Assembly (NCBI GenBank): GCA_016712375.1
Contig: JADJRE010000014.1
Coordinates: 17,768 to 81,767 of the forward strand
Reading direction: 5' to 3'
Source of the DNA: Rhodospirillales bacterium
GTDB taxonomy: Bacteria > Pseudomonadota > Alphaproteobacteria > Rhodospirillales > Defluviicoccaceae
DNA length: 64,000 nt
The number at the start of each line of letters is the position of its first letter. Position 1 is the first letter of the stretch. The notes under the pieces were generated by a model, which did not search any database, had not been told where the DNA came from, and saw only the letters and a program-made list of their open reading frames with translations. Both the position numbers and the translations under genes were made by a program. Positions 3,872 through 64,000 of the stretch are shown in pieces.

Positions 3872-4970
3872 TGGGCGCGTGTCCGCTTCGCAGTCATGTA
3901 ACGCTGGTTCTCGGGGGTTATGCAGCCGAGCAGCGGCAGCCGGTCGACAATAGTGATACCGGCTGCAGCGAGCGCTTTGATTTTGTCCGGGTTGTTTGTC
4001 AGTAGTCAGATCCGGTCATAGCCAAGCGATCGAAGCATTGTAGCGGCGATGCCGTACTGCCGCTCGTCCGGGCTGAATCCGAGTTGCAGGTCGGCGTCGA
4101 TGGTATCCCGCCCTCGGTCCTGCAAAGAATAGGCGCGCAACTTGTTGGCCATGCCGATCCCTCGTCCCTCCTGGGCCAGATACAGCAGCACGCCGCCGCC
4201 AAGCGCTTGCAGCGAGGCGATTGATTGCCGTAGCTGATCTCCGCAGTCGCACCGGAGGCTGCCAAAAACATCCCCGGTGAGGCAGGCAGAATGTAAACGC
4301 ACCGGTACGCCAGCCGAGCAATCAGGCGTGCCGATCAGGATTGCCAGATGTTCGCGGCAGGCGACGGCCGTTCGAAAACAAACGAAGCGAGCGTCGGGTG
4401 CGTCGGCGAGCGGAATATGAGCCTCGCTGATCTTAACCACGCTCTCGTCCAGGCTCTCGAACAGCCGGGTCAGGCCTTTACGGGTGACGGCATGCAGCGC
4501 TCTGCAGGCGACCAACGTCTCGAACTCCCCGCTTGCATCGGGACAACGGGGATCTTCAGGGCAACGGGCAACAGCAAAGCGGTTTTCAACAGCCGGACGA
4601 TCAGCGAATCACCCACGCTTCCTGGGAAACCCGGCACTGCAACAACCAGATCGTCGCCATCCGATCTTTGCGGATCGGACGTCGCCATCTTCATCATATC
4701 GAGCAGCGCCATGTCGGCCGATAGCGGCAGCGCGAAGACACCGGACACCGCTGCCTTATCAACGCCCAGCGCGATTGCCCGCTCTCCTGAGACCAGCAGC
4801 CACGACTCGCCAGCTCCAAACTGGCGAAGATGCAAACAAAGTGCCGGAGTAATGGTTTCCAGCGGTGCGTAAATCATCGCGGCCGCCTCGTCGACCATCA
4901 CGACCGGGCGGCCGCAGCGGATTTCGTCGATGCCGCGTTCCGCCGCCAACAACTCGGGATCGAACTTCAT
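3844..4970 (-). pseudogene. ribA: GTP cyclohydrolase II-like gene (degenerate RibB-like N-domain plus RibA domain), disrupted by one frameshift and one in-frame TGA
   Basis: ORFs 4470..4970 and 4006..4515 are consecutive parts in different frames. The RibA core reads VRLHSACLTGDVFGSLRCDCGDQL...YLAQEGRGIGMANKLRAY. After ...LRSLGYDRI there is a TGA at 4006..4008. The same frame then continues LLTNNPDKIKALAAAGITIVDRLPLL...HHLLDGASG to a stop at 3844. Confidence 0.75.
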
Positions 4971-5093
4971 GAACTCTTCAACGCTTTCAGGATCGGGTCG
5001 TTTCCCGATGGCTGCACTTTTCTACGATGAAAGGTTGATCGCGGGCTATCCTCTTCGAGCGATTGGAGTGATAAACGAGCAAAAGGACGAGAA

Positions 5094-5942
5094 TTGGACC
5101 TTCCCGAAGCAGAGTGGCGATTGCTGCTGAAGCTGGCTGCCGAGGCACGGGCGGCCCGGGACTTGTCGCCGCGCGGCGCCCTGTACCCCGAGCGCGCTGG
5201 CGACGCGCTGGCAACGCTATCGCATCCGCTTTCACAGCACATTTACGCGCCACTGATCGCACGCATCGCCGCGGGCCCGCTGGTCATCGCTCAGGTTGGA
5301 CAAAGTCTCGACGGCCGGATTGCCACAGCCGGGGGTCACTCCCACTACGTCAACGGCATTGCCGCGCTTACTCACCTTCACCGCCTACGGGCACTGGTGG
5401 ATGCCGTGGTGATTGGCGCAAGCACAGCGGTGCTTGACGACCCACAGCTTACCACGCGCCTGGTGGAAGGTCCCAATCCCGTGCGTGTCGTCCTCGATCC
5501 GCATCGTCGCGTGCCGCGAACGGCCCGGATGTTCGACGAAGCCGCCCCTGCGATTGCCGTTCGTGCCGCCGCATCGGATGCGATGGAAGGCGATGGCGTG
5601 CTCCTGCTGCCGGCTGAGCATGGCATCTTCGGGCCGGCCACCGTGCTCGATGGGCTGGCTGAACGCGGCTTACGCACCGTGCTCATCGAAGGCGGCGGCG
5701 AGACGATCTCGGCGTTTCTACGAGCGGAGCGGGTGGATCGCCTGCATGTACTGCTTGCACCATTGCTGATCGGTCCCGGCCGGGAGGCATTCAAACTTCC
5801 GCCACTCGAGCGGCTGGATGCGGCACGGCGTTTCCGGATGACCGCGCAATTTCTTGGCGACGATGTGCTGCTCGACTGCGATCTTCGAGCGGCCAATGAA
5901 AGTGCAGCCGATGCTTACCAACACGCCAGCACGTCCCGATGA
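5094..5942 (+). CDS. RibD C-terminal-domain reductase (pyrimidine reductase / DHFR-like fold), no deaminase domain
   Basis: VIAQVGQSLDGRIAT, VDAVVIGASTAVLDDPQLTTRL and VLIEGGGETISAFL...VDRLHVLLAPLLIG match the RibD_C reductase family. Divergent from the ribA-like gene. Confidence 0.75.
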   Translation: MDLPEAEWRLLLKLAAEARAARDLSPRGALYPERAGDALATLSHPLSQHIYAPLIARIAAGPLVIAQVGQSLDGRIATAGGHSHYVNGIAALTHLHRLRALVDAVVIGASTAVLDDPQLTTRLVEGPNPVRVVLDPHRRVPRTARMFDEAAPAIAVRAAASDAMEGDGVLLLPAEHGIFGPATVLDGLAERGLRTVLIEGGGETISAFLRAERVDRLHVLLAPLLIGPGREAFKLPPLERLDAARRFRMTAQFLGDDVLLDCDLRAANESAADAYQHASTSR

Positions 5943-6730
5943 CCGACGCGCGCCCGCAAGCAGCGCGCCTTGATTGCTTCGAACCGGCGCGCCATCCAGG
6001 AGTTGATCGCCTCCGTAGCTTCCGGCTCTATCTCGCGCGCGGCCTCCGCCCAGCCGCTCACCAGCAGCTGCAGGAGGTGCGCATCGCCCGGCGTGAGCCG
6101 CCAATCGCTTCGTGCTGTCCGCACGACCGCGCCAGACGCCGCGGCAATCCGCACCAGGGCTGCCCGCGCGCCCGGTCCGAGGGCGTGTCCGAAGCCCTTG
6201 TCGGCGTGCTGGTGCTGGTCGAAAAGCGCGAGTGCGACGGCGTCGAAAGGATCAGGCGGGTGCAGTACCACCCGGCCATCATAGGTGAGCGCCGCATAAA
6301 AAGTGACACCGGGACACGCGGCGGCTCCCAGCAATTGCCGGCACCAATCTTCGGAAACGAGATCAAATAGCGCCGAGGCGGTGATCAAATCGCCGCCGCG
6401 CAGCAATTCGGGCAGGCGCCGTGTGTCGGCTAAATCCGCACAGAGCCGCCGGACGACGATCTGTTTCCCCCTCCGGGGCAGGCGCGTTGCTGACGCGAGC
6501 AGTGTCGCATCGTTGTCAATCAACCTCCAGCTTTGCGGAGACGGAAGTAGAGGTGCCAGAAGGCGTAGGGTGCCGCCGGTTCCTGCGCCGAGATCGACGA
6601 TGTGGAGCGGCTTCCCGTACGCTTGCCGGCCCGCCAGTCGATGTCGAACCGCACGTAACAGCAATGGAGCTCGAGCCTGCCGGTCGGCGCCCGCACGCAG
6701 CGCCAGCCACTCCGCCGAGAAGCCGCTCAC
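5915..6730 (-). CDS. class I SAM-dependent methyltransferase
   Basis: C-terminal 272 codons of ORF 5915..7237. SAM motif I is IVDLGAGTGGTLRLL. The proposed GTG start at 6730 overlaps the TGA of the upstream glycosyltransferase (GTGA). The Arg/Pro-rich N-terminal 169 codons of the track ORF are out-of-frame overlap with that gene. Confidence 0.7.
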   Translation of the reverse strand: MSGFSAEWLALRAGADRQARAPLLLRAVRHRLAGRQAYGKPLHIVDLGAGTGGTLRLLAPLLPSPQSWRLIDNDATLLASATRLPRRGKQIVVRRLCADLADTRRLPELLRGGDLITASALFDLVSEDWCRQLLGAAACPGVTFYAALTYDGRVVLHPPDPFDAVALALFDQHQHADKGFGHALGPGARAALVRIAAASGAVVRTARSDWRLTPGDAHLLQLLVSGWAEAAREIEPEATEAINSWMARRFEAIKARCLRARVGHRDVLACW

Positions 6731-7776
6731 CGGAGGCAAAGGTCGTCGATCGCGGAAAGCAGATCCCGGCCGACGTCGTTCCAGGAGCGCCCTTGCGTCG
6801 GTCGGTGGCTGCGGGGCCGCCGACTGACGAGGTGGGGGCGGAGCGCCCGGGCGAGGCTGCGCGGGTTGCCCGGAGGTACCAGCGAGTGCCGTGATCCGGT
6901 AGCGGCCTCGGCAATGGCGCCGGCGTCGCTCGCGACGATGGGCAAACCGTAAGCCGCAGCCTCGGCCACGACGATCCCGTATCCTTCGTAATGGGATGGC
7001 AACACAAACAGGTCGGCGTTGCGGTACTCCGACGGAAGCTGCGTCGGCGTCACGGGACCGACCAGGGCGACCCGGCGTTGTAATCCAAGAGCCCGCGCCA
7101 GCCGACGCAGGCGCCCGGCAAACGCTCGGTCTCGCGGTGGTCCGACCAGCCGCAGTTGCCATCGCAGGCAGCGGAGTTCTCCCAGTGCCCGCAGCAGCAC
7201 GTCTTGGCCCTTGCGCGGCGTCAAAGCGGCAACGCAAAGCAATGTAGGCACCTCTGCGGGTCGCCGGCGGGTGCCGAGCCCGCCCATTCGACTCAAATCT
7301 ACACCCGGTCGGACGACGCGAACGCGCTCCGACGGAACCGCGAAGTCGCTGAGGCGGTGTGCAGTCGTCGCACTGGTCACGATAACGCCCTGAATCAGCG
7401 CCAGCGCCAGGGCACGTCGCTCGCGCTCGAATAGCCGATCACGAGCGTCCTTGGTGAGTCCGGTCTCGTCCGCGAGCGGATGATGCACGAGAACAACAAG
7501 GCTGAGCCGCCGGCTGGCAGCCTCGAACACCTCGAGCAAAGGCGAGAACGCCAGGCCGTCGATCAGCAGCGCGGCGCCTTCGGGCAACGAGGCAACGGCC
7601 CGCTCCGCTGCGGACACGGTCGGCACGCTCGGTTCTGGCCAAGCGCCGGGCACAACGATCAGGCTTGCGAGGCGGCCGGCGCGGCGCAAAGCGTGCAGCA
7701 CCCACCGGTCGTAGACAAAGCCGCCGGTCGGCGTGTCGGGCGGGCCTGGCAACAAGACGTGAAGGCAGACGTTCAC
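6727..7776 (-). CDS. glycosyltransferase family 4 (GT-B, Glycos_transf_1 type)
   Basis: C-terminal signature LFVLPSHYEGYGIVVAEAAAYGLPIVASDAGAIAE. About 349 aa. Confidence 0.8.
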   Translation of the reverse strand: MNVCLHVLLPGPPDTPTGGFVYDRWVLHALRRAGRLASLIVVPGAWPEPSVPTVSAAERAVASLPEGAALLIDGLAFSPLLEVFEAASRRLSLVVLVHHPLADETGLTKDARDRLFERERRALALALIQGVIVTSATTAHRLSDFAVPSERVRVVRPGVDLSRMGGLGTRRRPAEVPTLLCVAALTPRKGQDVLLRALGELRCLRWQLRLVGPPRDRAFAGRLRRLARALGLQRRVALVGPVTPTQLPSEYRNADLFVLPSHYEGYGIVVAEAAAYGLPIVASDAGAIAEAATGSRHSLVPPGNPRSLARALRPHLVSRRPRSHRPTQGRSWNDVGRDLLSAIDDLCLR

Positions 7777-51175: not shown

Positions 51176-51180
51176 GATTG

Positions 51181-52179
51181 ATGCGGGTGTGGTCGGGATC
51201 GCCACTATTGCATGTCGAGGACGTTTTTGAGCACGCGCCATTTCCAGCGGCGCACGCCTCGACAATGGCCGAAACGGAAGCGGGCCTCGTCGCCGCCTGG
51301 TTCGCCGGCACCCGCGAGGGCCATGGCGATGTCGGAATTTGGGTCGCCCGCCGGGAGCACGGCCGATGGCTGTATCCGGTCGAGGTGGCCAACGGACGGC
51401 TTGCTCTGCGCCGGCGCTTGCCGTGCTGGAACCCGGTGCTGTTCCAGCGGAAGAAGGGCGAGCCGCTTTTGCTGTTCTACAAGGTCGGCCCCAGCCCTAG
51501 CCGCTGGTGGGGCATGTTGCTGACTTCGGAAGACGCCGGCTGTTCGTGGTCTGAACCGCGCCGATTGCCAAAGGGCATTCTGGGTCCGATCAAGAACAAG
51601 CCGATCCAATGGGCGGACGGCCGTTTACTCTGCCCATCGTCGGACGAGGAGGGGCGCTGGCGGTTGCATTTGGAGTGGACAGACGCGACGGCGACAACCT
51701 GGCGACGCGGACCGTCGCTGAACGACGGACCCGTCTTTGCGGCGATCCAGCCAACGCTGCTTACCCATGGAAGCCGGTTGCAGATGCTCTGCCGTACCCG
51801 CCAAGGCACGATCGGCCAATGCTGGTCGGAGGATGGTGGCGAAACCTGGACAACTCTGGCGCCGACCGATCTCCCTAATCCGGACAGCGGGATCGACGCG
51901 GTGGCGCTGGCAGACGGACGTGCGCTTCTCGTCTACAACCACAACCAGACAGGCCGGACGCCACTGAACCTCGCGATCAGCGATGACGGCGAAGCTTGGT
52001 CGGCTGTTGCAATTCTGGAGGATCAGCCGGGGGAATACTCCTACCCGGCGATCATTCAGAGCGCCGACGGTATCGTGCACGTCACCTATACCTGGAACCG
52101 TCGCCGCATCCGCCATGTAACGCTGTCGCCCACGGATTTTTGTTTGCGGCCTATCGTAGGCGGCCTCTGGCCGGAGTAA
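51181..52179 (+). CDS. BNR/Asp-box repeat sialidase-family (exo-alpha-sialidase-like) protein
   Basis: Asp-box repeats SEDAGCSW, SEDGGETW and SDDGEAW. The overall pattern is typical of the small bacterial sialidase-like beta-propeller family. Confidence 0.75.
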   Translation: MRVWSGSPLLHVEDVFEHAPFPAAHASTMAETEAGLVAAWFAGTREGHGDVGIWVARREHGRWLYPVEVANGRLALRRRLPCWNPVLFQRKKGEPLLLFYKVGPSPSRWWGMLLTSEDAGCSWSEPRRLPKGILGPIKNKPIQWADGRLLCPSSDEEGRWRLHLEWTDATATTWRRGPSLNDGPVFAAIQPTLLTHGSRLQMLCRTRQGTIGQCWSEDGGETWTTLAPTDLPNPDSGIDAVALADGRALLVYNHNQTGRTPLNLAISDDGEAWSAVAILEDQPGEYSYPAIIQSADGIVHVTYTWNRRRIRHVTLSPTDFCLRPIVGGLWPE

Positions 52180-54876: not shown

Positions 54877-55977
54877 ATGATTCGCGCCGCAACAGCCGAG
54901 GACATACCCGCCCTCGTCGAGATCGAGAATCGCGCCTTCTCGACCGACCGCATCTCGCGGCGTTCCTTTCGCTACCTGCTGTCGAAGGCTAAGGCGGCAG
55001 TGCTGGTCGAGACTGACGCATCTGGCTTCGTTCGTGGCTACGCGCTGCTGCTGTTCAACCGGGGCACTTCGTTATCGCGTCTCTACTCGATCGCCGTTGA
55101 TCCCTCACGGCAGCGCGAAGGTGTTGGCAGGACCTTGCTGGCAGCAGCGGAGGCGGCTGCCCGCGACCGCGGCACGGCCTGGATGAGGCTCGAGGTTCGT
55201 GCCAACTCGCTGGACGTGCAAGCCTTTTACAAGGCACATGGCTTCCACAAATTTGCTCTCCAACCACACTACTACGAAGACGACGTGGCGGCCGTGCGGA
55301 TGGAGAAATCACTGGCGCCGCGCCGTGATCCGAGCCTGATGCGCGTGCCCTATTACGCGCAGACGCTCGACTTTACCTGCGGGCCGGCGGCGGTACTGAT
55401 GGCCATGCGGGCTCTCGATTCCGGCACGCGGGTCGATCAGACTGCGGAGATCCGGATGTGGCGCGAATCGACGACGGTATTCATGACCTCCGGCCTCGGA
55501 GGCTGTAGCCCGGAGGGTCTGGCGCTGGCGGCGCAGCGCCGCGGCTTCACAGTCGAATTGTTCCTCAGCGAAGGCGGCGTGCTGTTTGTTGATTCCGTTC
55601 GCAGTCCTCTGAAACGGGAGGTAATCCGCCTGGTGCAGGAGGATTTTCGGGAACAGTTGGCGATCTGTGGCGTCAAGATGACATTCCGGCCGTTGACGTT
55701 AGAGGCAATGCGCCGCTATTGCGAAGAAGGCAGCGTGCCGGTGGTATTGATCAGTTCCTGGCGGTTCGATCGCGAAAAGCAGCCGCATTGGGTGGTGGTG
55801 ACCGGGTTCGATTCGAACTACGTCTACCTCCACGATCCGAACGTCGACGAAGAACTCGACAAAACTCCGACCGATTGCATGCAGATCCCGGTGCTGCAAG
55901 GAGAATTCGTTAAGATGGCGCGCTACGGCAAGACGCAACAGCAGGCAGCGTTGGTGATCGGCAGGGTTCGCGACTGA
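54877..55977 (+). CDS. bifunctional GNAT N-acetyltransferase / C39-like cysteine peptidase domain protein
   Basis: ATG 54877 within ORF 54823..55977. GNAT domain: IRAATAEDIPALVEIENRAF...RQREGVGRTLL...AFYKAHGF. Papain-like domain: YYAQTLDFTCGPAAVLMAM...HWVVVTGFDSNYVYLHDP, with a Cys and a His in the C39-type context. Confidence 0.75.
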   Translation: MIRAATAEDIPALVEIENRAFSTDRISRRSFRYLLSKAKAAVLVETDASGFVRGYALLLFNRGTSLSRLYSIAVDPSRQREGVGRTLLAAAEAAARDRGTAWMRLEVRANSLDVQAFYKAHGFHKFALQPHYYEDDVAAVRMEKSLAPRRDPSLMRVPYYAQTLDFTCGPAAVLMAMRALDSGTRVDQTAEIRMWRESTTVFMTSGLGGCSPEGLALAAQRRGFTVELFLSEGGVLFVDSVRSPLKREVIRLVQEDFREQLAICGVKMTFRPLTLEAMRRYCEEGSVPVVLISSWRFDREKQPHWVVVTGFDSNYVYLHDPNVDEELDKTPTDCMQIPVLQGEFVKMARYGKTQQQAALVIGRVRD

Positions 55978-57583
55978 TGCCGTCGCATGTCGTCGTCGTC
56001 GATCGCCGCTCAGACTTTCCTTGGGCCGCTCCGGATCGGCTGGTTATGCCGGCGAAGGAATTTGTGGGTGAAGCGGCGCGTCGTCTTCCTGCCTCGGCGC
56101 GGGTCATCAACCTCTGCCGCGACATGAGCTACCTCAGCCTCGGATACTACTGCTCGCTGCTGGCTGAAGCGCGGGGGCAAAAGGCGATCCCGTCGGTCGA
56201 GGTCATGCTCGACCTGCATTGGAAGCGGCTGTTACGCATCGCTCTACCGGAAGTGAATGAGCTGGTGCGTAGGACTTTCCGCGTGCCGCCGGAGATGCAG
56301 CCACCGTTTACCGTTACGATCTTTTTCGGCGAGCCGGATGACCCTCGCCTGACGGTGGCAGCGCGGCGCATATTCGAGCTGTTCCGCTGCCCGCTCCTGG
56401 CTGTTGAGCTGCGCCACAAGAACGGCTGGGCGATCGAGTCTATCGAGCCGATCTCAATCCGCGAAGTGCACACGGACCAGCGGCAGCTGTTCATTGAGGC
56501 GCTCGATCGGTACACCCGCGCTGCTTGGCGACGCCAACGAACGACGACGCCGGCCCGCTGGTGCATCGCCATGCTGCAAGATCCTAAAGAGAAGCTGCCT
56601 CCGTCAAACGGCAAGGCGCTGGAGCGGTTCGTACGCGCCGGCGCACAGCTGGGCTGCGACGTGGAGTTGATCACCCGCGCCGATTACGGGCGTCTTGCCG
56701 AATTCGATGCCCTGTTCATCCGGGAGACCACGGCGCTCGATCACCACACCTATCGCTTCGCCAAGAAGGCAGAATCCGAGGGGTTGCCGGTGATCGACGA
56801 CACGCGCTCGATCCTCAAGTGCACCAACAAAATCTATCTTGCCGAACTTCTGCAGGCGAACGGAGTCCCGTGCCCGCGGACGCTCATTCTCGATCGTCGT
56901 GGAATCGGCAGGATCGAGCGCGAGTTGGGCTTTCCGGCAGTGATCAAGATACCCGACGGCTCGTTCTCGCGCGGCGTCTACAAGGCGATGAGTGCGGCCG
57001 AGCTGGAGGACATTGCCGAGCGCATCTTCAAGGAGACGGACCTGATCATAGCCCAGGAGTACATGGCGACAGCATTCGACTGGCGAGTAGGCGTGCTCGA
57101 CCGTAATCCGCTGTTCGTCTGCCAGTACTTTATGGCACGCGACCACTGGCAGATCGTCAAGCACGGCAATTCCGGCGAGGCCGAAGAGGGTGGGGCGCGA
57201 ACCTTTGCACTCGCCGACGCGCCTGCGAAGGTCGTCGAGATAGCAACAAAGCGGCCAGCCTGATCGGCTCCGGTCTTTATGGCGTCGATTTGAAGCAGAA
57301 CGAGCGCGGCGTCTTTGTTGTCGAGGTCAATGACAACCCTAATATCGACGCCGGGGTTGAGGATGCGGTGCTGAAAGACGAACTCTACCGCGCCGTCATC
57401 GGTTCGCTGGTCCGGCGGTTGGAGAAGCGCATGCAGCCGGGCCGCGGTCGCAATGGCAATGCGCTGACGCTCGGGCAGCCGCAATCGCTTGATCGGCTAT
57501 TGAATCCCTCTCGCGACGGTTCCATCCGCTCGGCAGCGGAAGTGATCCCTGTCGACGAAGGCAGGACCACCGTCACCGGCTGA
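55977..57583 (+). pseudogene. RimK-family ATP-grasp ligase with RLAN-type N-terminal domain, frame broken once as sequenced
   Basis: ORF 55977..57263 (N-domain ...SYLSLGYYCSLLAEARGQKAIPS...; ATP-grasp LPVIDD...NKIYL...FPAVIKIPDGSFSRGV...IAQEYM...DWRVGVL) continues in ORF 57290..57583 (GLYGVDLKQNERGVFVVEVNDNPNID). The break is near 57250. The ATG overlaps the upstream TGA. Confidence 0.8.
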
Positions 57584-57841
57584 GGCCTCCCCGCCCCAAG
57601 CGCAATGACGCGAACAGGTGCCGCTTGGTCTTGCATCGGCTGATGCATTTGCGTATGATCTTCACCTGCTGAGGTAACGAAACACCTTCGCGTGTTCAGT
57701 CCAAGTCTACGGTGCGAAGTCGGGTAGTAGCTCACTAGAAGCTGCGCCCTCGAACAGGGTCTGCTAGTGTAATCCTTACCATCTTGATCGGTCGAAGTTG
57801 TTCGGCTCAAAATTGTGTGCAATGGGGAGGGAGGGATATCT

Positions 57842-59893
57842 ATGTCCCTGCGCAGTTTTAATCAGACTTTGACAATCGCCGGCACCGTCGTCGGCATAGA
57901 TCTCGCCGTTCCTTCATTTACAGTGGAAGCTCGCAGCGGCGACAAATTCGAGGCCGTCGTCGGCCGAGAGACATATTACTCGGTGCTGTCTAATCTGGAC
58001 GGCCTCGATCGGAACCGCGTTCCTCCGCCGGAAGGCGTCTCTGGTGACGACAGCGTGATCTACAACCTGCAGAAGTATGCCGTGGCTGGCCGGCCGCTGT
58101 CGGTCAGGGGCATTTATCAGCAAAATGACGGCCGCGAGCGATTCGAGGCACGCGACGTATACCTGCTGCACTCCGATCCACAGCGCTACCTGTTCGAGGA
58201 AACGCACTGGTGGCCGACCCAGGTGACGCAGATGGCCGATCGAATCCTCGACCATCTGTTCGATGCCAAGCGCAGTTACTCGATCGACGATTTCTCTGAA
58301 TTCTACCGGACGAACCTGAATATCCTTGGCCAGGCGACGGACGAGACGGTGCAGGAATGTGCCGTGCTGTCGCGGCTTCTCTACGACTTGGCGTCCGCTT
58401 ATATGATGACTGGCGCCGAACGTTACCTGATGGCGGCGCGCGCGGCGGCGAACTACCTGCGCGAGGCGTTCCGCAGCCTCAGTCACGACGGGCGCTATTG
58501 CTTCTGGGCTTACGGCCGGCGGCGCAACATACAGGGCGAGCGCGGCGAGTATCTGCTGTTCGCCTCGCAAGGCCCGGACGACCACGGGACAATCCCGCTT
58601 TACGAGCAAATTTACGCGCTCGCCGGTCTGACGCAGTTTTACCGTATCACCCTGGACTGGGAGGTCCTGGAGGACATCCGACGCACCATCAACAGCTTCC
58701 AGGATTTCTTCTGGGACCCGCCGTCGGCCAAGGAGAAGGGCTTCGCCGGCGCCGGCGGCTATTATTCGCACCTCGATCCGGCGACAATGCGCCCCGATAC
58801 GGTGACGCCTGAAGAAAACCGTTCGCGCAAGAACTGGAATTCCGTGGGCGACCACATCCCGGCGTACCTGGTCAACCTCATCCTGTCGATCGAGCCGCTG
58901 CCCCAGGGTACCGTTCGGCAAATGTTCGCGCCGCTGCTCGAACGCTGCCACGGCATTCTGGAGGAGACCTCGTCGCTGATCTGCGAGAAGTTCCCGGACC
59001 CGAATTCGGATTTTGTCATCGAACGGTTTCATGCCGACTGGACGCCCGACCTGTCCTACCGCTGGCAGCAGAACCGGGCGGTGGTCGGCCACGACCTGAA
59101 GATCGCCTGGAACCTGACGCGCTGTGCCTATTACTTCCAGACACGTGCCAAGCGACTGCGCGATGCCGGCAAACCGCAGGACGCCGCTGGCTACGATCAA
59201 CGCTCCGACCGCTGCCTGGAGGTCGCGAAACGACTGGCTGATCGCATGGGCGAGGTCGGGCTGGACAAGATTCGCGGCGGCATCTTCGACTGCGTCGAAC
59301 GCAATCCGAGCGGCGGAATGCCAACCCAGTTTGCCTGGGGCGCCACCAAAGACTTCTGGCAGCAGGAGCAGGGCATACTCGCCTACCTTATCCTTTACGG
59401 CGCGACCAACGACGCCAAGTACCTGCGGATGGCGCGCGAGTCGTCGGCCTTCTGGAACCTGTTCTTCCTCGACCGCGAACGGCAGGGATACTTCTTCCGC
59501 ACCACCGAAAACGGCCTGCCGATCCTGGAAGGCCAGTATGCGATGAAGAGCAGCCACGCCATCGGCTACCATGCCTTCGAGTTGGCCTATCTTGCCCACC
59601 TGTACACTCGCGCGCATGTGGCTGCGGGCGGTGGCAGCGACAACAGCTTCTGTCTTTATTTCAAGATCTGCAGCATCAAGCAGCAGCAGTCGATCAACGT
59701 GCTGCCCGACTTTATGCCCCCCGGCCGGGTGCGCATTGCTTCGGTACGCGCTAACGGTGTGGACGTGACGGAGGATCTCGATCCGGCAAATCTCGCCGAA
59801 TACCAGATACCGACTGATGCAATGACGCCAGATCCGGTGAGCGGCGCTGTCGAACTCGTCGTCGAGTTCCACGCAAGTCCTGCTCATTCGTAG
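57842..59893 (+). CDS. N-acylglucosamine 2-epimerase (AGE) superfamily (alpha/alpha)6-barrel protein with extra N- and C-terminal domains
   Basis: ATG 57842 after gggagggaggga, within ORF 57815..59893. VVGHDLKIAWNL and FWQQEQGILAYL match the GH-x-E...W and W-x-Q-x-E motifs of AGE / cellobiose-2-epimerase-type barrels. Function unknown. Confidence 0.65.
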   Translation: MSLRSFNQTLTIAGTVVGIDLAVPSFTVEARSGDKFEAVVGRETYYSVLSNLDGLDRNRVPPPEGVSGDDSVIYNLQKYAVAGRPLSVRGIYQQNDGRERFEARDVYLLHSDPQRYLFEETHWWPTQVTQMADRILDHLFDAKRSYSIDDFSEFYRTNLNILGQATDETVQECAVLSRLLYDLASAYMMTGAERYLMAARAAANYLREAFRSLSHDGRYCFWAYGRRRNIQGERGEYLLFASQGPDDHGTIPLYEQIYALAGLTQFYRITLDWEVLEDIRRTINSFQDFFWDPPSAKEKGFAGAGGYYSHLDPATMRPDTVTPEENRSRKNWNSVGDHIPAYLVNLILSIEPLPQGTVRQMFAPLLERCHGILEETSSLICEKFPDPNSDFVIERFHADWTPDLSYRWQQNRAVVGHDLKIAWNLTRCAYYFQTRAKRLRDAGKPQDAAGYDQRSDRCLEVAKRLADRMGEVGLDKIRGGIFDCVERNPSGGMPTQFAWGATKDFWQQEQGILAYLILYGATNDAKYLRMARESSAFWNLFFLDRERQGYFFRTTENGLPILEGQYAMKSSHAIGYHAFELAYLAHLYTRAHVAAGGGSDNSFCLYFKICSIKQQQSINVLPDFMPPGRVRIASVRANGVDVTEDLDPANLAEYQIPTDAMTPDPVSGAVELVVEFHASPAHS

Positions 59894-59917
59894 CAGTCTT
59901 GAGGTCAAGAGGCTCAG

Positions 59918-61470
59918 ATGCCCGACAAGTCGCTCGCCGGCAAGAAGATCGCCGTACTGGTCGAAAGTCAGTACATCCCCGGAGAAATCAGGGCATATCA
60001 GGAGCGCTTCGCCTCTTATGGTGCTGAAGTGCATCTGATGTCTCGGCTGTGGGGAAACCCCAGCGGACGCTTCTATTCAACCGTTGAGCCGGACGACAAG
60101 GGCAACGTCCCGCCGATCGAATGGCTCGATGTATCAATCGATTTCGACCACGTGAACCTGAACGACTACGCCGCGGTGGTCGCGGCAGCCAACTATACAA
60201 CCGTCCGCCTGCGCTATTCCGAGCGGGAGATCACCACCGGCAACGCTGCCGAGGTGGCGCGCAATGCGCCCGCGGCGCGTTTCTTCCGCCGGGCGATGGA
60301 GAACCCGAAGATCATCAAGGGGGCGCCGTGCCATGCGCTGTGGCTGCTGACGCCCTCGCCCGACCTGCTGGCCGGTCGCAAGGTGATCTGCAATCCCGTG
60401 GTGCTGGCCGACCTCATTAACGCCGGCGCCATCTACACGCCCTGTCCCGCCGGCACGCCGCCCGAGCAGCAGGTAGTGGTCGATCGCGATCTCGTCACGA
60501 ATCCGGGATGGCACGCCAGCAACGCCCTCGTTGATGCGATGCGCGAGCAGATCCTTAATCCGCCGCTAGCGTTACAGACCGACCCGCCGCCGGCGGTCCC
60601 GGTCACGCCGGCCAAGCGCCGCATCCTGATTGTGCTCTCGGAGTGGGGATACTGGGGTGAGGAGCTGGTCGGACCGCTGGGCGAGTTCGATCGGGCAGGC
60701 TATCAGATCGACTTCTGCACCCCGAACGGCCGTCGGCCGAACGCCATTCCCGTCAGTTGGGATCCCAGCTTCTTCGATCCGCCGCTGCAACGGCCGGTGA
60801 CCTCCGACAGCATGGCCGCGCGTGTCATCGAGATGGATGATCCCTCGACGCAGCAGGGAAAGCGCCTCGACAATCCGATCAGCCTCGCGGACTGGTTCCC
60901 GCAGCGGCCCTACTTCGCGGCGCCCACGTTCGTGCGTGGCCTGGAAGCTTACAACCGCCAGCTGGTCGATGCGCAGCGCGGGATCGAGAAGTACGACGCG
61001 GTGCTTATCGTCGGCGGCTCGGGGCCGATCGTCGATCTCGTCAACAACCAGCGGGTTCACGATCTGATCTTGGCCTTCCTCGCCGCCGGCAAGCCGATCG
61101 GCGCGGAATGCTATGGTGTTGCCTGCCTCGCCTTCGCCCGCGACATGAACATGCGAGAGAGCATTATCCGCGGCAAGCACGTCACCGGGCACTGCCTGGA
61201 GTACGACTACCAGGACGGCACCGCGTTTGTCGAATCGCGCGGGCAATTCCTGAACTTCAACATGGGCCCGCCGCCTTACGCGCTGGAGTTCATCCTGCGG
61301 GACGCCACGGCGCCGGGCGGTGCCTACCATGGCAATTTCGGCCACCCGACCAGTGTCATCGTTGATTATCCGTTTATCACCGGCCGGTCGACGCCGGACA
61401 GCATCCTCACCGGTCAAAAAATGATCAAGTGCTCGACGGCAACCCGCCGCTGCGCCGGTGGGGTTGGTAA
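59918..61470 (+). pseudogene. tandem DJ-1/PfpI (class I glutamine-amidotransferase-like) domain protein, C-terminus frame-broken as sequenced
   Basis: Two repeats: KKIAVLVESQY...IKGAPCHALWLL...VVVDRDLVT and RRILIVLSEWGY...DAVLIVGGSG...PIGAECYGVACLA...VIVDYPFITGRS. After ...GQKMIK (about 61425) the -1 frame gives VLDGNPPLRRWGW and TAA 61468..61470. The track ORF runs on out of frame to 61864. Confidence 0.75.
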
Positions 61471-61538
61471 AGCGCATATCCCGCCGTCGCGCCTGGCCGG
61501 CGGCAGGCAGTTACATGCACGGATAAGGAGCAGGCGTC

Positions 61539-63218
61539 ATGCCCACAGCATCGGGGCATCGCAAGCTGCTGGAGCAGTTGGAAGCCGATGGCATCACCAC
61601 GATGTTCGGCAATCCCGGCAGCAGCGAAGAGGGGTTGCTCGACGAGATCAGCCGCTTTCCCGGAATCCGCTACATCCTGGGCCTGCAGGAGGCGACGGTC
61701 GTGCAGATCGCTGCCGGTTTCGCGCAGGCGACGCAGCGCCCGACCGCCGTTCAGCTGCACTGCAGCGTCGGCACCGGCAACGCCCTAGGCAGCCTGTACC
61801 ATGTGTTTCGCAAGCAGCGGACGCCGCTGGTGGTGATCGCGGGCGAAGCGGGTATGTCATATGACGCGCTCGACGCGCACATGGCGCTTGATCTCGTCAC
61901 CTTCGCCCGGCCGGTGACCAAGTACGCGGCGCGGGCCATCCATCCGGGCAGCCTTCTGCGGCTGCTGCGTCGCTGCATCAAGACAGCGATGACGCCCCCC
62001 TTCGGTCCCACCTACCTTGCCGTGCCACAGGACGTGCTCGACATGCCGAATGACGAGCCGGTGCTGCCGACGTCGATCCCGGACACGCGCGTGGCGCCGT
62101 CGCCCGAGGCCATCGCCCATGCAGCGGAGCTGCTGGCTGGTGCTGAAAATCCGGTGATCATCATCGGCGACGGCGTTTCGCACGCCCAGGCACACGGCGA
62201 ACTGGCGACGGTGGCGGAGCGGCTTGGTGCCGGCGTCTGGGGGGCCATGGTCTCCGAGCTGAACATCCCGTGGTCGCACCCGCTCTACCGCGGGCTGACA
62301 GGGCACATGTTTGGGTCCACCAGCCGACGCATCGTTGAGGACGCCGACGCCGTGCTGATCTGCGGCACCTATGTTTTCCCGGACGTTTTCCCGCTGGTGG
62401 AAAATCCGTTTCGCCCGGACGCCAAGATCGTGCACATCGATCTGGACACCTATGCCCTCGCCAAGAACCACGCAGTGACCCTTGCTCTGGCCAGCGATCC
62501 GAAACCGACGCTGGCGCTGCTGGCCGATGCTCTGGCGGCACGCATGACACCCGCGCAAAAACAGGCGGCGGCGGCCCGCGCTGAACAACTTCGTGCGGAC
62601 AAGGCGGCAGCGCGCCTGCGCGATCTGGCGGCGGATGCCGAGCGGCGCGAGGCGGTACCGCTTTACATGTCGGCGTTTGCTGAAGAGCTGGCGAAGCATC
62701 TGCCACCTGACGCCATCGTCTATGACGAAGCGCTCACGTCGTCAGGTCTCACGCGCTATTTCGTGCCCGAGCGTCCTGGCAGCTTCTTTCAAACGCCGGG
62801 AGGTACGCTTGGCGTCGCCTTTCCCGGCGCCATCGGTGTGAAGATTGCGCATCCCGACCGCACGGTGATCGGCTTTGGTGGCGACGGTGGCGCTCTTTAT
62901 ACCTTTCAGTCGCTGTGGACCGCGGCGCATTACCGCGTGGCTGCCAAGTTTGTCGTCTGCAACAATCGAAGCTACCGGCTGCTGAAAGACAATCTCGTCG
63001 TCTACTGGCGCGACATGAATATCCAGCAGACGAATTTCCCGCCGTCGTTCGACATCCATGATCCGGAGATTGATTACGTGGCGCTCGCGAAGGGACTGGG
63101 CGTGCCTGGCCTGCGGGTGACCAAACCTGGCGAAATGGCTGGGGCCATCTCCGCAATGTTGTCGCACGACGGTCCATTCCTGATCGACCTGATCATGGAA
63201 GACAGCGTGCACCGCTAG
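61539..63218 (+). CDS. thiamine-diphosphate-dependent enzyme (acetolactate synthase / benzoylformate decarboxylase family)
   Basis: aaggag RBS. N-terminal GITTMFGNPGSSEEGLLD, and the ThDP-binding motif GFGGDGGALYTFQSLWTAAHY...VVCNNRSY. Confidence 0.85.
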   Translation: MPTASGHRKLLEQLEADGITTMFGNPGSSEEGLLDEISRFPGIRYILGLQEATVVQIAAGFAQATQRPTAVQLHCSVGTGNALGSLYHVFRKQRTPLVVIAGEAGMSYDALDAHMALDLVTFARPVTKYAARAIHPGSLLRLLRRCIKTAMTPPFGPTYLAVPQDVLDMPNDEPVLPTSIPDTRVAPSPEAIAHAAELLAGAENPVIIIGDGVSHAQAHGELATVAERLGAGVWGAMVSELNIPWSHPLYRGLTGHMFGSTSRRIVEDADAVLICGTYVFPDVFPLVENPFRPDAKIVHIDLDTYALAKNHAVTLALASDPKPTLALLADALAARMTPAQKQAAAARAEQLRADKAAARLRDLAADAERREAVPLYMSAFAEELAKHLPPDAIVYDEALTSSGLTRYFVPERPGSFFQTPGGTLGVAFPGAIGVKIAHPDRTVIGFGGDGGALYTFQSLWTAAHYRVAAKFVVCNNRSYRLLKDNLVVYWRDMNIQQTNFPPSFDIHDPEIDYVALAKGLGVPGLRVTKPGEMAGAISAMLSHDGPFLIDLIMEDSVHR

Positions 63219-63247
63219 CGCCGACACCGCGCCGGGAGAGACAGCCG

Positions 63248-64000
63248 ATGCCTGAACACGCCGTTTATCTGGGTCGGGAATGGAACATCGAGCACGACCA
63301 GCGCGCCAAGGTCAGCAATGCTGAGCTGCGCTACGCTGTGGTCGGTGAAGGCGAGCCGGTGCTGTTCATCCATGGCACCAGCATCGCCGACAGCCTGATC
63401 ACGCCCATGCGTTTCTTCCCGGCGCTTTTCGAGGATTACAAGCTTATCAGTTACTACCGCGCCGGTTACAACGGGAGCGCGCTGGAAAAAAGCAGCCTCA
63501 GCATCGAGGAGGGGGCCGAGCACGCGCGACAGTTGCTGGACCATCTCGGCATCGACAAGGCCCACATCGTCGCCTTTTCGTTCGGCGGCGTTATTGCTTT
63601 TCAGTTCCTGCTGTCCTTCCCGGAACGGGCGCACTCGGCAGTGTTGTTGAGCCCTATTTGCCGCGTGAAGAACCAGCGGCTGTGCACGCCAATCTCGATG
63701 CGTTTGTCCGTGCCAACGAGCTTTACCAGCAGGGAGACAAGCTGGGCGCGGCGCAGCTTTACATGGAGCTGGTGTGCGGGCCGTCTTTTCTAGGCTCGGT
63801 GGAGATGACCAACCCGCTCGACGTCTGGCGGCGGGTGGAAGAGTGCGTCGACACGACATTTACAGTAGATTTCGCGGCGATTACCGCCTGGGCTTTCCGC
63901 ATGTCGCAAGCTGACCAGATGGTGGCGCGCAAGCCCGCGATGCCGATCCTTGCGGTGATGGGGATGGACAGCGAATCCGCCATGCCGGGTTTCCGCGAAA
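63248..64000 (+). pseudogene. alpha/beta hydrolase, frame broken once as sequenced and truncated by the window edge
   Basis: ORF 63248..63793: PVLFIHGTS...HIVAFSFGGVIAFQ (nucleophile elbow). After ...HSAVLL (about 63649) the homology-like sequence continues in the -1 frame (EPYLPREEPAAVHANLDAFVRANELYQQGDKLGAAQLYMELVCGPSF...) to the window end. Confidence 0.7.

Follow-up and report, generated by a model that had tools for sequence, protein, structure and literature searches.

At the 3' end of the 64,000-nt window, the stretch of Defluviicoccus (Rhodospirillales) DNA analysed here, which covers positions 17768-81767 of contig C14, four plus-strand genes lie close together: gene 1 encodes a protein of the AGE superfamily, gene 2 a tandem DJ-1 protein, gene 3 an enzyme dependent on thiamine diphosphate (ThDP), and gene 4 an alpha/beta hydrolase (Table 1). 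According to the listing of open reading frames (ORFs) and their translations, neighbouring genes stand 24, 68 and 29 nt apart, and a spacer of 258 nt (57584-57841) precedes the first, in agreement with a preliminary description of the window made from the sequence alone. That description regarded the four genes as an operon. They do form a same-strand operon head, but the operon continues for seven more genes, the last two of which encode GH13 enzymes, as was revealed when the next 10 kb past the window end were taken from the genome contig for the operon extension that the description had proposed. The whole operon comprises 11 same-strand genes over roughly 16 kb, about 10 kb of it past the window end. 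The two GH13 alpha-glucan enzymes at its end tie the operon to glycogen or maltodextrin, a link that the extension brought to light. No signal-peptide-like N-terminus was found among the 11 operon proteins, and the operon products are cytoplasmic.

Table 1 Promoter, leader and genes of the operon, numbered as in the window
Feature	Position	Strand	Basis
Promoter-like pair: TTGCAT, 17-nt spacer, TATGAT	57631-57636 and 57654-57659	+	Sequence reading and conservation
5' leader, about 175-180 nt, with GGAGG ribosome-binding site at its 3' end	57666-57841	+	Similar length in relatives
Gene 1, AGE-superfamily protein, 683 aa	57842-59893	+	ORF, PF07221, AlphaFold (AF2) model
Gene 2, tandem DJ-1 (PfpI-like Cys-His half, ThiJ_like Cys-Tyr half)	59918-61470	+	PF01965 and PF17124
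Gene 3, benzoylformate-decarboxylase-like ThDP-dependent enzyme, 559 aa	61539-63218	+	Three TPP_enzyme domains
Gene 4, alpha/beta hydrolase, about 297 aa	63248-64000, end at window-equivalent 64140	+	Abhydrolase_1
Operon genes after the hydrolase, in order: GMC oxidoreductase; tandem EthD; 111-aa ORF; second GMC; MetX-like hydrolase; CBM48-GH13; AmyA-type alpha-amylase		+	

Among the genes beyond the window, the tandem-EthD gene overlaps the first GMC gene by 4 nt, and the 111-aa ORF (window-equivalent 66713-67048), which lies between EthD and the second GMC gene and is kept in some relatives, gave a weak match to the Nif11 domain (21.6 bits; cut-off, 23.8). The CBM48-GH13 enzyme, 809 aa in length, reached the cut-off of no named model (TreZ, 173 bits; GlgB, 169 bits; GlgX, 90 bits), and its regions I-IV with the Asp/Glu/Asp residues (DVVYNH, GFRVD, AED and HESHD) were conserved in 28 homologues. 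The last operon gene encodes a cytoplasmic AmyA-type alpha-amylase of 478 aa (NF006969, 577 bits; cut-off, 382) and is followed by a convergent gene. Genes for STAS proteins, a PP2C phosphatase or an RsbW-type kinase were absent both from the 11 operon genes and from their flanks. Since canonical glgB (three copies), glgX (two) and treZ (two) are also present in the genome, the GH13 set of the operon is additional to the canonical set. Two further paralogues of the CBM48-GH13 enzyme, with 61% and 48% identity, were found on other contigs (C43:98096-100559 and C22:1041-3449, respectively); both adjoin transposase genes and are without an AGE or DJ-1 partner, and the C43 copy is frame-shifted. 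Their neighbourhoods, with no informative partners, were discarded as a clue to function.

The sequence of gene 1 matched PF07221 (GlcNAc_2-epim) with 45.4 bits against a cut-off of 23.4, the match being limited to residues 385-582, and in sequence or profile searches against solved structures it reached only an N-acylglucosamine 2-epimerase (E 1e-4). In the AlphaFold model (pLDDT 84, pTM 0.89), residues 1 to about 115 form an N-terminal beta domain, residues 123-592 an (alpha/alpha)6 barrel and residues 602-683 a C-terminal beta domain, as the preliminary description had anticipated for an AGE-like protein with additional domains at both ends. In a Foldseek search with this model, ranks 1-35 were all AGE-family structures. 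The best match was cellobiose 2-epimerase (3wkf; E 2.5e-14, TM 0.78 on the target), and glucose 2-epimerase, mannose isomerase, the sulfoquinovose isomerase YihS and N-acylglucosamine 2-epimerase were among the other top matches. Gene 1 has the (alpha/alpha)6 barrel in common with these epimerases and isomerases (E 1e-10 to 2.5e-14, TM 0.68-0.80 on the targets), whereas its N-domain and C-terminal beta domain are extra to them. When folded alone, the N-domain gave a generic OB fold with Z scores of about 8 (best 8.2, SSB-like); a specific role for this domain was considered and dropped, the fold being uninformative on the ligand.

The family of gene 1 homologues comprises at least about 3,350 proteins, and the best 120 listed were 60-88% identical to gene 1 and mostly full length. 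Out of 1.84 billion proteins, the family profile retrieved only 695 cluster representatives, a number which suggests that it does not extend to the canonical AGE enzymes and that the family is a compact clade apart from them. A distant branch of the family, with 37-39% identity to the window protein, adjoins isoamylase or GlgX genes in cyanobacteria and can bear a fused STAS domain; in Desmonostoc, for example, a 38%-identical homologue with a C-terminal STAS domain overlaps the end of an isoamylase-type gene. All 28 residues checked, including R178, H310, H338, H417, K420, W423, W506, E509, H577 and E580, were invariant in 74 homologues of both branches, and the two branches should therefore catalyse the same reaction. 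Of these residues, R178, H310, H338, H417, W423, W506, E509 and H577 are found in motifs similar to those of the AGE family, and GHxLKxxW, WQQEQ and YHxFE of gene 1 presumably correspond to its His/Trp/Glu/His motifs.

The two halves of gene 2 matched PF01965 (DJ-1_PfpI, 58.6 bits) and PF17124 (ThiJ_like, 66.4 bits), and their Cys-His and Cys-Tyr pairs were invariant in 16 full-length homologues; the score against the PfpI subfamily model TIGR01382 (72 bits) was below the cut-off of 139. For gene 3, a resemblance to benzoylformate decarboxylase (BFD) and acetolactate synthase (ALS) had been described earlier, and this was borne out by its three ThDP-enzyme domains, by the BFD model NF005485 as its best NCBIfam match and by its nearest solved structures, which were benzoylformate decarboxylases (about 230 bits), with ALS and glyoxylate carboligase next at about 130 bits. 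As its score of 316.4 bits missed the NF005485 cut-off of 493, gene 3 is classed by sequence as a BFD-like ThDP enzyme and not as a BFD orthologue. It shares the three-domain architecture of the BFD (MdlC) family, its GDG...NN cofactor motif is conserved, and its GNPGS, LQE and LH motifs presumably correspond to Ser26, Glu47 and His70 of BFD. Unlike MdlC, gene 3 lies outside any mandelate operon and is partnered with a ThiJ_like DJ-1 domain. Gene 4 matched Abhydrolase_1 with 49.9 bits, and its nearest NCBIfam models were PcaD, HsaD and BphD-type, all scoring far below their cut-offs.

The spread of this gene set was analysed at several distances. Among 40 relatives, 18 share the genus (D. vanus Ben 114 is one of them), and the AGE-like gene was found in 11 of these; it was found in one of the six that represent other genera of the family, but in no member of the 16 from other families of the order. 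When gene order was compared in fourteen related loci, that of the present operon recurred in 10 other Defluviicoccus or Rhodospirillales genomes, and two versions with different middle parts were distinguished. Version A, found in the present genome, reads AGE, DJ-1x2, ThDP, hydrolase, GMC, EthDx2, GMC, hydrolase, GH13, GH13; version B reads AGE, DJ-1, ThDP, a 145-aa protein, SnoaL, SnoaL, 4-OT, SnoaL, GMC, VOC and GH13, sometimes with a second GH13. A minimal form consisting of AGE, DJ-1x2, EthD and GH13 was observed in Rhodoplanes, and Ca. Competibacter also has the module.

A wider scan covered one genome per species and 80 loci, in which partners were sought within 10 kb of the AGE-like gene. 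GH13 genes were found in 67 loci, DJ-1 genes in 66 and ThDP genes in 36, counts that are lower bounds as many loci end at contig edges. The loci came from more than 12 phyla (Pseudomonadota, Cyanobacteria, Actinomycetota, Myxococcota, Planctomycetota, Spirochaetota, Nitrospirota, Bacillota, Chlorobiota, Chloroflexota, Acidobacteriota, Verrucomicrobiota, Armatimonadota and Desulfobacterota), so that the co-localisation is strongly conserved and the refutation for which the preliminary description had allowed does not apply. When all neighbouring ORFs were clustered de novo, the partners ranked as they did in the targeted count, and outside the Nostoc lineage no recurrent transporter or kinase partner appeared in the neighbour clusters. 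The ThiJ_like half of DJ-1 accompanies ThDP in 33 of the 36 loci. Where the halves are encoded separately, the PfpI-like half adjoins AGE (28 cases) or GH13 (21 cases), and the ThiJ_like half adjoins ThDP (16 cases). The coupling of AGE with DJ-1 was confirmed by a fusion protein of 1256 aa with both PF07221 and PF01965; a protein atlas offers, as leads, clustered AGE-DJ-1 fusions about 800 aa long and AGE-STAS forms. The conserved core is composed of the AGE-like barrel, the PfpI-like DJ-1 domain and the CBM48-GH13 enzyme, and the ThiJ_like DJ-1 domain with the BFD-like ThDP enzyme is a frequent add-on. The middle cassette is replaceable, and the gene 4 hydrolase belongs there and not to the conserved core. 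In an uncultured Chloroflexia metagenome-assembled genome (MAG; locus L091, 1-6629), cassette A (hydrolase/GMC/EthD/hydrolase/GMC) was found at 69-79% protein identity, adjoining a distant-type DJ-1, GlgX and AGE core. This recurrence indicates that the cassette travels as a unit, and suggests that it moves horizontally as one block.

Part of this gene set has a counterpart in Synechocystis PCC 6803, in the icfG cluster slr1852-slr1862, which reportedly goes back to Shi et al. (1999), as cited in PMC8670252 and PMC12329169. The cluster is an operon tied to carbon and glucose metabolism and includes Slr1855 (annotated as an N-acetylglucosamine 2-epimerase), the STAS proteins Slr1856 and Slr1859, the debranching enzyme Slr1857, the phosphatase IcfG and the kinase Slr1861 (PMC8670252, PMC12329169). 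In the literature, slr1853 is annotated as a carboxymuconolactone decarboxylase (CMD) and slr1852 and slr1854 as unknown; the work on this cluster that we found concerned its regulators only, with no enzymology of its enzymes. As in the window operon, an AGE-family gene, a GH13 gene (Slr1857, GlgX) and small carbonyl-type enzymes are co-located, and all 28 checked residues are common to the icfG-like distant branch and the window protein, the likeness to Slr1855 being based on cyanobacterial homologues and the published gene list. The STAS, PP2C phosphatase and RsbW-type kinase genes that accompany the distant branch are absent from the window operon, its GH13 partner is a divergent TreZ/GlgB-like CBM48 enzyme and not GlgX, and it adds the ThDP enzyme, a second DJ-1 domain and the hydrolase/GMC/EthD cassette. 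The operon is a variant of the icfG-type gene set from which the regulators are absent, with another GH13 partner and a new cassette. In eight Nostoc-lineage loci, the isoamylase and AGE-STAS gene pair is preceded by a gene for an 886-aa GH63/MGH1-like hydrolase (L086/L088, about 4360-7136) and followed by a response-regulator/pyridine-nucleotide-oxidoreductase fusion and a cNMP-binding kinase.

A second comparison, by analogy only, is with the TreY/TreZ route, which makes trehalose from glycogen or maltodextrin and would follow the same logic in that the reducing-end glucose is remodelled and a CBM48-GH13 enzyme cuts alongside. Although the operon GH13 enzyme scored best on the TreZ model, its 173 bits are far below the cut-off of 538.8; moreover, the operon is without TreY, the genome has its own TreZ, and remodelling would fall to an AGE-type isomerase rather than to a GH13 mutase.

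We give about even chances to the reading that the eleven-gene cytoplasmic operon, whose 5' end the four genes form, represents one version of a widespread, biochemically uncharacterised module that is linked to glycogen or other alpha-glucan and carries out the carbonyl chemistry proposed here. Its parts differ in strength: that the operon belongs to a conserved module is highly probable, the link of the module to alpha-glucan is likely, and the stepwise mechanism is tentative. The CBM48-GH13 enzyme and the AmyA-type alpha-amylase would cut stored alpha-glucan, exposing a reducing-end glucose or releasing malto-oligosaccharides. The AGE-like barrel, which appears to keep the Arg/His/His/Trp/Glu set of C2-epimerases and aldose-ketose isomerases, would act at C1/C2 of that sugar via an ene-diol. 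The 2-oxo or dicarbonyl sugar derivative formed in this way would then be converted by the DJ-1 Cys enzymes, the ThDP decarboxylase/lyase and FAD oxidases. The middle cassette, which in the present genome contains a hydrolase, GMC, tandem EthD, a second GMC and the MetX-like hydrolase, consists of enzymes of enol, carbonyl or redox chemistry. These findings fit the chemistry on an unusual sugar-derived or 2-oxo-acid compound that the preliminary description had put forward without being able to name an established pathway; none was found in the literature either, where the papers found on the gene combination, on slr1852-slr1859 and on Defluviicoccus glycogen genes offered only omics mentions and regulator work, with no enzymology of the AGE-like, DJ-1 or ThDP members.

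Several points weigh against this reading. No paper was found that demonstrates any step of the proposed chemistry, and gene 1 is only 13-17% identical to characterised epimerases. Within its motifs, Lys420 presumably replaces the epimerase Glu after the second His, and Glu580 the Arg after the third His. These charge swaps suggest a substrate unlike plain neutral disaccharides; the substrate of the AGE-like barrel may be anionic, or not a plain aldose. The module was present in only three of 400 evenly sampled Pseudomonadota genomes, which is unusual for core glycogen metabolism. The adjacency to GH13 genes shows a functional link and not its direction, and the operon could equally build or modify glucan. 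In addition, the middle cassette resembles the tailoring enzymes of secondary-metabolite clusters.

This last point leads to the alternative that survives best, although we consider it unlikely, namely that the operon is a biosynthetic cluster in which glucose units from alpha-glucan are turned into a specialised small molecule (pyranone-like, cyclitol-like or an acylated sugar, serving as protectant or signal). The scaffold would come from the AGE, DJ-1 and ThDP enzymes, and its tailoring from the variable cassette. The swappable middle is indeed made of typical tailoring folds (SnoaL, EthD, 4-OT, VOC, GMC and a MetX-like acyltransferase-type hydrolase), and the patchy spread, with 11 of 18 Defluviicoccus genomes against 3 of 400 sampled Pseudomonadota, the weak Nif11-like small ORF within the operon and the finding of cassette A beside a distant-type core in the Chloroflexia MAG, which resembles horizontal module transfer, point in the same direction. 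However, the neighbourhood clusters contained no recurrent exporter, regulator, glycosyltransferase, PKS/NRPS or other scaffold-forming enzyme, the minimal form is just AGE, DJ-1, EthD and GH13, and in cyanobacteria the core is connected with regulators of carbon metabolism.

DJ-1/PfpI and VOC (glyoxalase-fold) proteins are classical dicarbonyl-handling folds. Their presence in the module speaks for damage control, that is, the removal of reactive dicarbonyl sugars (glucosone- or deoxyglucosone-type compounds), or of oxidised or glycated glucose units in or from glycogen. The GH13 enzyme would excise the damaged end, and AGE, DJ-1, VOC and ThDP would detoxify it. The invariance of both DJ-1 Cys nucleophiles, the cytoplasmic location of the module without a transporter and the large glycogen pools of its carriers, glycogen-accumulating organisms (GAOs) and cyanobacteria, are in line with such a role. 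Repair systems, though, are usually small and uniformly spread, whereas here the cassette varies and the module was not found in most of the glycogen storers sampled, and a BFD-like decarboxylase with two FAD oxidases suits a flux-carrying pathway better. We regard damage control as rather improbable.

A bolder and still less probable proposal is that the module is a non-phosphorolytic route that eats alpha-glucan from the reducing end, an enzymatic counterpart of chemical 'peeling'. In such a route the AGE-like barrel would isomerise the reducing-end glucose to a ketose via an ene-diol, beta-elimination or GMC oxidation would free the remaining chain and yield a deoxy-dicarbonyl hexose, and this hexose would be rearranged, cleaved or decarboxylated by DJ-1, the BFD-like ThDP enzyme and the tautomerase/SnoaL/VOC/EthD/hydrolase cassette. 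Finally, the idea that the window genes degrade an exogenous aromatic or 2-oxo acid in a mandelate-like manner, with a BFD-type decarboxylase and a C-C hydrolase, and that the GH13 genes are merely downstream, draws on the nearest relatives of genes 3 and 4 (benzoylformate decarboxylases, and the PcaD, HsaD and BphD models), but is very improbable given the AGE/DJ-1/GH13 adjacency across more than 12 phyla and the fusion proteins, by which it is disfavoured, the missed BFD equivalog cut-off (316 against 493 bits) and an operon without dehydrogenase, ring-cleavage dioxygenase or transporter.

Three operon genes contain frame changes. Gene 2 had been described earlier as a double DJ-1/PfpI protein; both domains were confirmed by Pfam, but the bounds in Table 1 span 1553 nt, a length not divisible by three, and hence do not form one frame. 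The frame shifts at about 61428-61433: one frame aligns with intact homologues of 515-518 aa as far as 61432, and the final 13 residues of these homologues, ending ...MIECLDGDPPLRRWGW, lie in the adjacent frame of the window, up to the stop at 61470. Since the homologue ending is encoded in the adjacent frame, one base is missing near 61428-61433; read straight in frame, gene 2 instead acquires an Arg-rich tail that overlaps gene 3. Gene 4, described earlier as a serine hydrolase and matched here by Abhydrolase_1, is not one frame within the window, since its frame changes at about 63649/63650 and an intact homologue aligns in two window frames, and it ends 140 nt past the window. The third case, at window-equivalent about 69596, is the MetX-like hydrolase gene beyond the window. 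All three are single ORFs in relatives. Both canonical glgX copies and one treZ of the genome are also split into adjacent frames (C10:81085-83182, C10:17628-19623 and C6:122236-123899), which points to frequent single-base indels in the assembly; the operon frame changes are therefore probably sequencing or assembly indels, and not gene decay or pseudogenes. The ATP-grasp gene upstream of the operon is also in two frames (55977-57263 and 57290-57583).

Gene 1 starts at ATG 57842, which is preceded by the Shine-Dalgarno sequence GGAGGGAGGG; the same Met is the start in relatives, and GTG 57815 was dropped as a start in its favour. In eight Defluviicoccus relatives, a CTTGCA-N17/18-TATAAT-like pair stands at an equal upstream distance, and by this conservation the TTGCAT-17-TATGAT pair is a likely sigma-70-type promoter, although a strict consensus promoter scan did not flag it. 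A riboswitch or leader RNA in the 258-nt region was considered and rejected, because an Rfam search of the upstream region gave no match at E<=1 and RNAalifold on the leader of the eight relatives gave -0.88 kcal/mol and no conserved fold; only the hexamer pair was kept. Nine terminator-like sites were found inside the operon against 10.9 expected by chance, none of them in the larger intergenic gaps, and internal terminators were rejected. A minus-strand ORF of 706 aa (57914-60034), antisense to gene 1 and without a family match, was rejected as an artefact of high G+C content, as the only ORFs similar to it run antisense to this gene in other loci. Directly upstream of the spacer lies the RLAN/RimK-type ATP-grasp gene, which is itself preceded by a GNAT-DUF3335 peptidase-like gene. 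About 6 kb upstream, a BNR_2 (sialidase-like beta-propeller) gene occupies window positions 51178-52179, with no evident relation to the operon.

Defluviicoccus is a known glycogen accumulator, and the comparative genomics of its glycogen and trehalose metabolism makes no mention of the present operon (PMC9041414). Glycogen metabolism is deemed well mapped, and yet a core of three to four enzymes stands beside GH13 genes in more than 12 phyla with no assigned reaction in the literature found; the module probably marks an unstudied way to process a stored glucose polymer. It is present in both main glycogen-accumulating groups of wastewater, Defluviicoccus and Ca. Competibacter, whose phenotype is defined by glycogen cycling, and for the cyanobacterial carriers the published icfG cluster connects a related gene set to the regulation of carbon metabolism. 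To these the window adds a proteobacterial version that is free of regulatory genes, a middle cassette of a second type and evidence that cassettes move between phyla. If the peeling route were true, the storage-carbon metabolism of glycogen-accumulating organisms and of cyanobacteria would have a new branch. Once assigned, the reaction of the AGE-like barrel would give a function to its family of at least about 3,350 proteins, and might bring to light a new fate for stored glucan.

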